The notes beneath the pieces are model-generated. The model had not been told where the DNA came from and searched no databases. It was given only the letters and a program-made list of their open reading frames with translations. Shown in pieces: positions 60,671 to 60,755 of a DNA stretch of 64,000 bases (positions are counted from its first letter, which is position 1; every line of letters starts with the position of its first letter). This DNA is from Escherichia phage Eryne: sequence record PQ529420. The stretch is one strand, 5' to 3'. The translations under genes and the position numbers were made by a program.

Positions 60671-60755
60671 GATGGATTGGCCTAGTGGTTGGGCGACGGA
60701 CTGTTAATCCGTGAACGAAAGTTCTAGCAAGGTTCAAATCCTTGATCCATCGCCA
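60671..60755 (+). tRNA. tRNA with Asn-type anticodon (GTT) on a type-II scaffold (15-nt variable arm), CCA encoded
   Basis: perfect 7-bp acceptor GATGGAT/ATCCATC, 3-bp D-stem, anticodon arm ACGGA-CTGTTAA-TCCGT, variable hairpin GAAC-gaaa-GTTC, T-arm CAAGG-TTCAAAT-CCTTG, discriminator G. Confidence 0.6.

Follow-up and report, generated by a model that had tools for sequence, protein, structure and literature searches.

A tRNA-Asn gene with a long variable arm

The DNA analysed here, a stretch of 64,000 nucleotides from Escherichia phage Eryne (record PQ529420; hereafter the window), carries on its plus strand an array of 15 transfer RNA (tRNA) genes called by ARAGORN between positions 59495 and 62200. 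The only tRNA-Asn of this array, an 85-nt gene with an encoded CCA end at 60671-60755 (+), is the subject of this report, as it joins an asparagine anticodon to a long, hairpin-forming variable region. By the standard rule, long variable arms belong to tRNAs for serine, leucine and selenocysteine and to bacterial tRNA-Tyr. An earlier note on the window had proposed that the gene has a type-II architecture and that its product might be charged by seryl-tRNA synthetase (SerRS), so that AAC and AAU (AAY) codons would be read as serine; its fallback was an Asn tRNA with an odd arm.

ARAGORN calls the gene tRNA-Asn(gtt), matching its GUU anticodon, and the Rfam tRNA model RF00005 gives it 56.5 bits (E 1.2e-10), the gathering score being 29. 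The clean cloverleaf described in the earlier note can be read directly in the sequence, and both programs agree with it. The acceptor stem pairs GATGGAT (60671-60677) with ATCCATC (60745-60751), and its seven pairs, which begin with G1-C72, A2-U71 and U3-A70, all covary among homologues. The remaining conventional parts are the D-arm (60680-60694, GCCT-AGTGGTT-GGGC, with a 7-nt loop), the anticodon arm (60696-60712, ACGGA-CTGTTAA-TCCGT, a 5-bp stem with the anticodon at 60703-60705), the T-arm (60728-60744, CAAGG-TTCAAAT-CCTTG, which also covaries), the discriminator G73 (60752) and the encoded CCA (60753-60755). Bacterial tRNA-Asn molecules belong to class I and have a variable loop of 4-5 nt. 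In its place the window tRNA has a 15-nt extra arm (60713-60727, GAAC-GAAA-GTTC-TAG), in which a 4-bp stem (60713-60716 with 60721-60724) is capped by a GAAA tetraloop (60717-60720) and followed by a 3' spacer, TAG (60725-60727). The minimum-free-energy fold is a cloverleaf with this fourth hairpin (-29.5 kcal/mol, z = -2.57 against shuffles). As for a protein-coding gene overlapping the tRNA, the only candidate was a chance open reading frame (ORF) of 47 codons that touches its 5' end, and it was rejected.

The variable hairpin is thus confirmed by the fold, by the Rfam alignment and by covariation, its stem being paired in every one of 14 homologues. A covariance-model alignment could have returned a short variable loop and a different T-arm; instead, that of Rfam keeps a long insertion of 12 nt in the variable region. 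The type-II architecture that had been assigned to the gene survives in part. The variable region exceeds 10 nt and forms a stem-loop, as in class-II tRNAs, whereas the 3-bp D-stem of that class, with positions 13 and 22 unpaired, is not found here. Rfam aligns the D-stem as 4 bp, and pair 13:22, U-G in the window, covaries across homologues (GU in 5, AU in 4, UG in 3 and UA in 1), so the stem is of 4 bp. Therefore, the molecule falls short of a full type-II scaffold, its D-arm being class-I-like.

Conservation of the arm among phages

The window derives from a phi92-like E. coli myovirus (Justusliebigvirus, Stephanstirmvirinae), and its tRNA array is 98.5% identical to that of phage EmilieFrey. 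Across phi92-like phages the tRNA region as a whole is 97-98.5% identical, whereas the tRNA-Asn itself is unchanged (100% identity) in phi92 and over 50 relatives, in which it is annotated simply as 'tRNA-Asn'. An identical copy also occurs in two 146-kb GenBank records, MG065639 and MG065689, labelled as Campylobacter phages A150 and A110a; the Campylobacter jejuni host label of these records looks doubtful.

Long tRNA-Asn genes of about 83-86 nt extend well beyond this group. They were found in Klebsiella phage phi1_175008 (93% identical), Salmonella phage PVP-SE1 (Vequintavirinae, 85%) and phAPEC8 (Phapecoctavirus, 76%), as well as in the T5-like phages Stubb and PSTCR5, and an 83-nt form with a 3-bp arm is present in 309 records of the EPS7/AKFV33/SP15 type. 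Among six named phages the arm stems are GAAC/GTTC, GAGA/TCTC, GAGT/ACTC, GTTC/GAAC and GTTC/GGAC, while the loop is GAAA in all. To measure covariation we used a hand-chosen alignment of 14 distinct homologues (A3), since a model-based alignment (A2) had a permissive E-value cutoff that admitted ordinary tRNAs and was dropped. Standard pairs occupy 98.8% of the pair cells in this set, and none of 500 shuffles reached the observed covariation, which is also strong in a set of six homologues. Within the extra helix, three of the four pairs have changed on both sides, while the closing G:C pair and the spacer's central A are invariant, as are the anticodon loop CTGTTAA and G73. Judged by this pattern of compensatory change, the extra arm is evidently under selection in several phage lineages.

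A viral speciality

To survey the architecture more broadly, we searched for a host-like anticodon arm separated from a standard T-arm by a gap that implies 11 nt or more of variable region. The pattern matches at least 80 IMG/VR loci, and these yield 49 distinct, well-formed long tRNA-Asn genes whose acceptor stems are unrelated. Their arms are 11-20 nt long, with a stem of 2-4 bp in 46 of the 49 genes, a 4-nt loop in 38 (GAAA in 22, others including GCAA, GAGA, GTAA and TTCG) and 3-4 unpaired 3' bases in 39; 47 of them have G73. When the constraint on length was lifted, 28 of 120 viral tRNA-Asn stretches (~23%) proved to be long. In contrast, the long-arm pattern found only seven matches in 185,579 species-representative bacterial and archaeal genomes, of which three are dense tRNA arrays on contigs of metagenome-assembled genomes (MAGs) and two are not tRNAs, and a BLAST search of the window tRNA-Asn against 5,426 E. 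coli genomes returned no match. The long-arm tRNA-Asn architecture is shown by these counts to be a viral speciality.

Two of the array-bearing contigs are assigned to MAGs of Flavobacteriales (L186) and Saprospiraceae (L184) and hold 23 and 11 tRNAs, respectively. Among their genes are long-arm tRNA-Asn, tRNA-Lys(UUU) of 88-90 nt and a 93-nt tRNA-Ile(UAU), and L186 also has transfer-messenger RNA calls; they are probably phage or prophage DNA inside the MAGs. We found no prior description of a long-arm phage tRNA-Asn in the literature searched, which left out most subscription journals, so that this absence is not proof. While the gene is already annotated in GenBank, its architecture and distribution appear to be undescribed in that literature.

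Asparagine or serine identity

Bacterial asparagine identity consists of the anticodon and G73 and can be transplanted into tRNA-Lys, whereas E. coli SerRS reads tertiary shape and the variable arm and ignores the anticodon; G1-C72 and G2-C71 are conserved in bacterial tRNA-Ser (PMC9976931). The window tRNA has both asparagine determinants, G34-U35-U36 and G73. Position 73 is less telling with respect to serine, since G73 is common to the two identities (phage tRNA-Ser genes have G in 24 and U in 18) and therefore does not discriminate between them, though it does act against the leucyl and tyrosyl enzymes (PMC9976931).

Some features do lean towards serine. A long arm and G73 are the main serine determinants (PMC9976931), the window tRNA-Asn has G1-C72 and C11-G24, and a short GAAA-capped arm is also found on the phage's own tRNA-Ser(GCU). 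Against these stand the A-U pair at 2:71, the 4-bp D-stem, and an arm of four pairs with three unpaired 3' bases, where a tRNA-Ser arm is expected to have at least five pairs and 0-2 unpaired bases. A comparison of genes from the same phage loci makes this divergence clear. For example, G2-C71 occurs in 42 of 43 phage tRNA-Ser genes as compared to 23 of 49 long-arm tRNA-Asn genes, and U1-A72, the mark on tRNA-Asn that is used by GatCAB (PMC9976931), in 1 of 43 as compared to 33 of 49. Similarly, the arm stem is of at least 5 bp in 30 of 42 tRNA-Ser genes and of 2-4 bp in 46 of 49 long-arm tRNA-Asn genes, going down to 2-3 bp in relatives of the window tRNA, and the bases left unpaired 3' of the stem number 0-2 in 38 of 42 and 3-4 in 39 of 49. 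A further 18 of the 49 have C2-G71, a pair that counteracts SerRS in E. coli tRNA-Leu (PMC9976931). In its geometry, the long asparagine arm instead resembles the arms of phage tRNA-Tyr.

Codon usage in conserved proteins bears directly on decoding. When the phage NrdA, NrdB and RmlB proteins were aligned with those of E. coli, AAY codons fell on asparagine at 26 of 74 positions and on serine at 6 of 74, while phage serine codons fell on E. coli serine at 31 of 80. For the catalytic Asn437 of NrdA, the phage codon is AAC. AAY codons thus align with conserved asparagines, including a catalytic one, and therefore mean asparagine, so that a designed Asn-to-Ser recoding is excluded; a genome-wide reassignment of AAY to serine was rejected on the same grounds.

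Isotype scoring by tRNAscan-SE would not be decisive here because mismatches between isotype and anticodon are common in phage tRNAs; in phage Sf14, for example, 13 unique tRNAs among 26 score best for an isotype other than that of their anticodon (PMC12482277). We also looked for a donor isotype by comparing the body of the molecule, with anticodon loop and variable region masked, to about 700 phage tRNAs. The best matches outside the family reached only 65-76% identity (Tyr, Thr, Ser and Gln), so no donor was assigned. Since the full bacterial identity set for asparaginyl-tRNA synthetase (AsnRS) is present, charging by the host AsnRS is to be expected, and this enzyme would compete with any other for the tRNA. 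From sequence, then, the phage tRNA is most likely charged by AsnRS through GUU and G73, and it is the fallback of the earlier note, rather than its serine proposal, that agrees with the identity elements, the anticodon arm and the codon alignment.

Defence nucleases and the neighbouring tRNAs

Two nucleases of the Toprim family are known to attack host tRNA-Asn(GUU). [quoted passage not shown] In an AlphaFold 3 model, a second AriB subunit sits on D-loop residues U16-U17 (PMC12409363). P2-OLD also cleaves tRNA-Asn(GUU). It cuts both anticodon-stem strands at paired CNG motifs, each time following the C (PMC12445682), which in tRNA-Asn places the cuts after C28 and C40.

The array of the window holds counterparts of all three AriB targets. 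The genes for Lys(UUU), Tyr, Asn(GUU) and Thr(UGU) follow one another, and the Lys (60496-60571, +), Asn and Thr (60835-60909, +) genes, the outer two identified by ARAGORN and parsed arm by arm, fall within 420 nt. Known escape tRNAs carry substitutions at or near the nuclease sites (positions 39-41, or the CNG motifs or a shortened stem), and the neighbours of the tRNA-Asn follow this form. The window tRNA-Lys has C39-U40-C41 where the host has U39-C40|A41 at the AriB site, and the window tRNA-Thr has G39 for host U39 and lacks CNG motifs (U28-U29-G30; C40-A41-A42), its anticodon arm agreeing with that of T5 tRNA-Thr at 16 of 17 positions. The window tRNA-Asn, in contrast, retains host sequence at both nuclease sites, namely the AriB site UAAUC|C and the P2-OLD motifs C28-G29-G30 and C40-C41-G42, and has its hairpin immediately 3' of position 43. 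The T5 tRNA-Asn differs again, being short and having a degenerate anticodon stem.

Extra arms on other phage tRNAs

Extra arms are not confined to tRNA-Asn. Other class-I tRNAs are decorated in 33 of 497 cases (6.6%) in loci with a long tRNA-Asn as compared to 12 of 468 (2.6%) in loci with a short one (p = 0.003), a clustering of decoration by phage. Among the pooled loci, the isotypes decorated most often after Asn are Ile(UAU) (4/13), Thr(UGU) (9/53), Cys (7/47) and Trp (4/36), and Thr(GGU) has no extra arm in 16 genes. Individual examples include a tRNA-Glu(UUC) with a GTAG-GAAA-CTAC arm in phi1_175008 (positions 3786-3874 of locus L004) and, in locus L012, a tRNA-Cys(GCA) with GTC-GTAA-GAC (9032-9115) next to a tRNA-Trp(CCA) with GAC-GAGA-GTC (9120-9203). 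In PVP-SE1 (locus L003) an 86-nt tRNA-Lys(UUU) at 2848-2933 has a GAC-GCAA-GTC hairpin inside its D-loop along with a normal 5-nt variable loop, and ARAGORN misreads it, reporting a tRNA of unknown type whose anticodon has four bases. The class rule is also broken in the opposite direction: in two locus sets, 26 of 68 and 27 of 50 unique phage 'tRNA-Leu' genes have a short variable region of 4-9 nt, as exemplified by the 77-nt tRNA-Leu(UAG) of PVP-SE1 (3788-3864 of the same locus).

What the arm may do

The explanation that we consider probable is that the gene encodes a functional phage tRNA, charged with asparagine, whose arm is selected, specific to viruses and perhaps a shield against nucleases. 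With G34, U35, U36 and G73, the tRNA has a complete asparagine identity set, and its cloverleaf is of the 7/5 type and includes a 4-bp D-stem; it would be charged by the host AsnRS and, by the identity rules, would read AAC and AAU as asparagine. The host-identical anticodon arm would have been kept for AsnRS, for queuosine and t6A modification and for decoding, while the variable loop has been exchanged for a small, rigid hairpin. Its parts are a 4-bp stem, in which the closing G:C pair never varies, a GAAA tetraloop and a spacer of 3 nt, in which the central A never varies. Starting right after position 43, this hairpin would lie between two modelled contact points of AriB. The tertiary contacts G15-C48 and 13-22-46 have been described (PMC10424219); the nucleotides of the variable loop that are replaced normally pack on 13-22 and 15 of the D-arm, so the arm is predicted to project between the AriB contact sites, a position from which a steric shield is plausible on the model. 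The arm could in this way make the tRNA a poor substrate for AriB and P2-OLD, both of which cut the anticodon stem of host tRNA-Asn(GUU).

Taken by itself, the proposal that the arm shields tRNA-Asn from defence nucleases that cut the anticodon stem is our leading hypothesis for arm function, and one that we infer only tentatively. More speculative still is its extension to a hitherto undescribed family of 'armoured' class-I phage tRNAs, with Asn(GUU) foremost but also including Thr(UGU), Ile(UAU), Cys, Trp, Glu and occasionally Lys, in which a GNRA or UUCG hairpin in the variable region or D-loop might block or decoy AriB and OLD while leaving decoding unchanged.

Several observations weigh against a shield. 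Class-II synthetases approach their tRNAs from the side of the variable region, so the arm could hinder AsnRS itself. Because the AriB and P2-OLD motifs are kept in the anticodon stem, the arm could confer resistance by steric means only. The link between arms and nuclease targets is mixed across isotypes rather than general. The contrast of Thr(UGU), an AriB target decorated in 9 of 53 genes, with Thr(GGU), decorated in none of 16, speaks for it, but of 53 genes for Lys(UUU), the main AriB target, only 2 bear an extra arm, and isotypes not known to be targets of AriB or OLD, namely Cys(GCA), Trp(CCA) and Ile(UAU), are decorated in 11-31% of cases. The supply of codons is a sufficient reason for the phage to have a tRNA-Asn gene, although not for the arm: the G+C content of the window is 37%, and AAT makes up 3.1% of codons. 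(The comparison of codon usage with E. coli was not quantified, as the comparison region is atypical, with 46.7% G+C and mobile elements.) In published experiments, SP15's long-arm tRNA-Asn was expressed against PrrC170 solely as a negative control (PMC11555353), which is no test of the idea. Phage Bas34 required the T5 tRNA-Asn for rescue from PARIS in spite of having its own, a result that puzzled the authors (PMC12409363). Bas34 is Escherichia phage SelmaRatti (MZ501103), and its tRNA-Asn is of the long-arm type (GTC-GAAA-GAC, about 10598-10681 of locus L201), but the acceptor strands, 3' ACCCGCT and 5' GGGTCGT, have three central mismatches and the anticodon loop has U32; ARAGORN makes no call there, and the GenBank feature begins 7 nt late. 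The Bas34 gene is probably decayed and defective, which may explain the need for the T5 tRNA-Asn against PARIS. With a broken acceptor stem it offers no test of an intact long-arm tRNA, and we dropped this result as evidence on the arm.

The alternative that fares best, though we think it unlikely, is that the arm is a handle or stabiliser, aiding folding, replacing the m7G46/acp3U47 loop and so granting independence from host modification, or serving array processing or protein binding. The invariance of the GAAA loop in the six named phages and of the closing G:C pair and spacer A in the 14 homologues suggests sequence-specific contacts beyond mere bulk, GNRA or UUCG loops dominate the wider set of 49 genes, and similar hairpins sit on other isotypes, in one case even in a D-loop, and cluster in the same phages. 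No candidate partner has been identified, however, and this reading leaves unexplained both the far higher decoration of Asn relative to other isotypes and the near absence of the architecture from cellular genomes.

We regard it as less probable again that the arm is a functionless insertion, tolerated and inherited in fast-evolving phage tRNA genes. Phage tRNAs are indeed structurally lax, as seen in the many tRNA-Leu genes that lack a long arm and in isotype scores that often conflict with anticodons (PMC12482277), and ribosomes tolerate long arms, as type-II tRNAs demonstrate. Yet the compensatory changes and invariant arm positions persist across Stephanstirmvirinae, Vequintavirinae and Demerecviridae at an overall identity of ~75%, the arm designs of the 49 genes, on unrelated acceptor stems, are diverse but always stable, and a prevalence of about 23% argues for selection.

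It is very doubtful that the tRNA acts as a decoy, in which a host-identical anticodon arm would be the bait and the extra arm would block cleavage, thereby titrating or inhibiting Toprim tRNases instead of or besides taking part in translation. The exact retention of the AriB and P2-OLD motifs and the strong consensus promoter matches within the array would suit such a role, and competition by overexpressed viral tRNAs has been raised as a possible means of AriB inhibition (PMC12409363). This reading is purely inferential, though, and the strict conservation of G73, CCA and the T-arm, together with a canonical 7/5 helix, fits a translating tRNA, as does its being the only tRNA-Asn of the phage. 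Just as improbable, in view of the 2:71 pair, the arm geometry and the codon alignment, is that SerRS recognises the long arm and G73 and serylates the tRNA, turning AAC and AAU partly or wholly into serine codons.

Context of the tRNA array

A scan for sigma-70 consensus promoters found 19 sites in comparison with 9.8 expected, all of them pattern matches only. A perfect TTGACA-17-TATAAT match lies at 59830-59858 (+), and a sigma-70-like TTGACA-18 nt-TAGATT match with an upstream TG lies at 59970-59999 (+), ahead of the Ser-Ser-Lys-Tyr-Asn-Thr run. Directly 3' of the perfect match is a tRNA-like RNA (59870-59948, +) that is found by Rfam (38.6 bits) and not by ARAGORN. It has a 7-bp acceptor stem, a 7-nt linker in place of the D-arm, an anticodon arm with UCU (Arg) and an extra variable-region hairpin, CCGA-GUAA-UUGG, followed by a normal T-arm, G73 and CCA. 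Full-length homologues of this RNA are present in 240 phage records, which include phi92-like phages, 85-kb FelixO1-like phages and ~350-kb jumbo phages, and are mostly unannotated or called 'tRNA-OTHER'. Further along the array, a 79-nt tRNA at 61900-61978 (+) has the anticodon CAU at position 37, a 5-bp D-stem with a loop of 9 nt and only six clean acceptor pairs; the EmilieFrey annotation gives fMet for it, and that of phAPEC8 gives 'tRNA-Pseudo-CAT'.

Elsewhere in the window, a 310-aa ORF on the minus strand (51670-52602) matches the T4 Rnl1-type RNA ligase family (PF09511, E 2.3e-14). This family is known from tRNA repair after attack by anticodon nucleases, and its presence fits an arms race over tRNA integrity.

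Implications

A conserved long-arm tRNA-Asn is thus found in the genomes of hundreds of sequenced coliphages and Salmonella phages and makes up about one quarter of matching viral tRNA-Asn genes, while being nearly absent from cells. For annotation, this means that the long-arm genes are real and that gene finders sometimes truncate them or miss them altogether. The current view of phage tRNAs is that they counter immune systems directed at tRNA, and attack on tRNA-Asn(GUU) has been documented for two Toprim nucleases. Should the arm confer resistance, it would represent a structural mode of immune evasion, would explain why phages break the class rule and would supply a simple design principle for nuclease-resistant tRNAs. 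Armoured tRNAs, if they exist as a group, would escape by shape, in distinction to the known escape by point mutation of the anticodon arm. Had the arm allowed serylation, the gene would have been a natural mistranslation device, which the evidence makes unlikely.

Comparison with known systems

Bacterial class-II tRNAs for Ser, Leu and Tyr share with the window tRNA a variable region that exceeds 10 nt and folds into a stem-loop lying between anticodon arm and T-arm, and the closest likeness is to the arms of phage tRNA-Tyr, with a 3-4 bp stem and about three unpaired 3' bases. The window tRNA differs from them in its GUU anticodon, its 4-bp D-stem and its A-U pair at 2:71, and its 15-nt arm is much shorter than those of E. 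coli tRNA-Ser (18-21 nt). E. coli tRNA-Asn(GUU), encoded by asnT/U/V/W, has a 17-nt anticodon arm to which that of the window tRNA, compared arm by arm with asnT, is identical except at position 27, and the two molecules have G73 and the 7/5 acceptor/T arrangement in common. The host molecule departs from that of the phage in its 5-nt variable loop (AUGUC), in the pairs U1-A72, C2-G71 and C3-G70, and in its D and T arms.

The T5 tRNAs for Lys, Thr and Asn are phage copies of AriB-depleted tRNAs, and the window likewise has all three close together, with Lys and Thr substituted at positions 39-41 as in T5. The T5 tRNA-Asn, however, is 78 nt long and has a mutated, partly mismatched anticodon stem, whereas that of the window keeps the host stem and carries the arm.

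The nematode nev-tRNAs (PMC3333845, PMC4300185) and the bacterial allo-tRNAs (PMC5389517) similarly combine a long variable arm with the anticodon of an isotype that normally lacks one. In vitro, the nev-tRNAs become mischarged with leucine (PMC3333845, PMC4300185), and the allo-tRNAs, which have been put forward as serine isoacceptors, show an 8/4 or 9/3 arrangement of acceptor and T helices (PMC5389517), unlike the canonical 7/5 tRNA of the window. In both groups the anticodon mismatches the amino acid that is charged or proposed. As the anticodon itself is the major identity element for AsnRS, cognate charging is expected of the window tRNA-Asn, which would set it apart from the nev- and allo-tRNAs.

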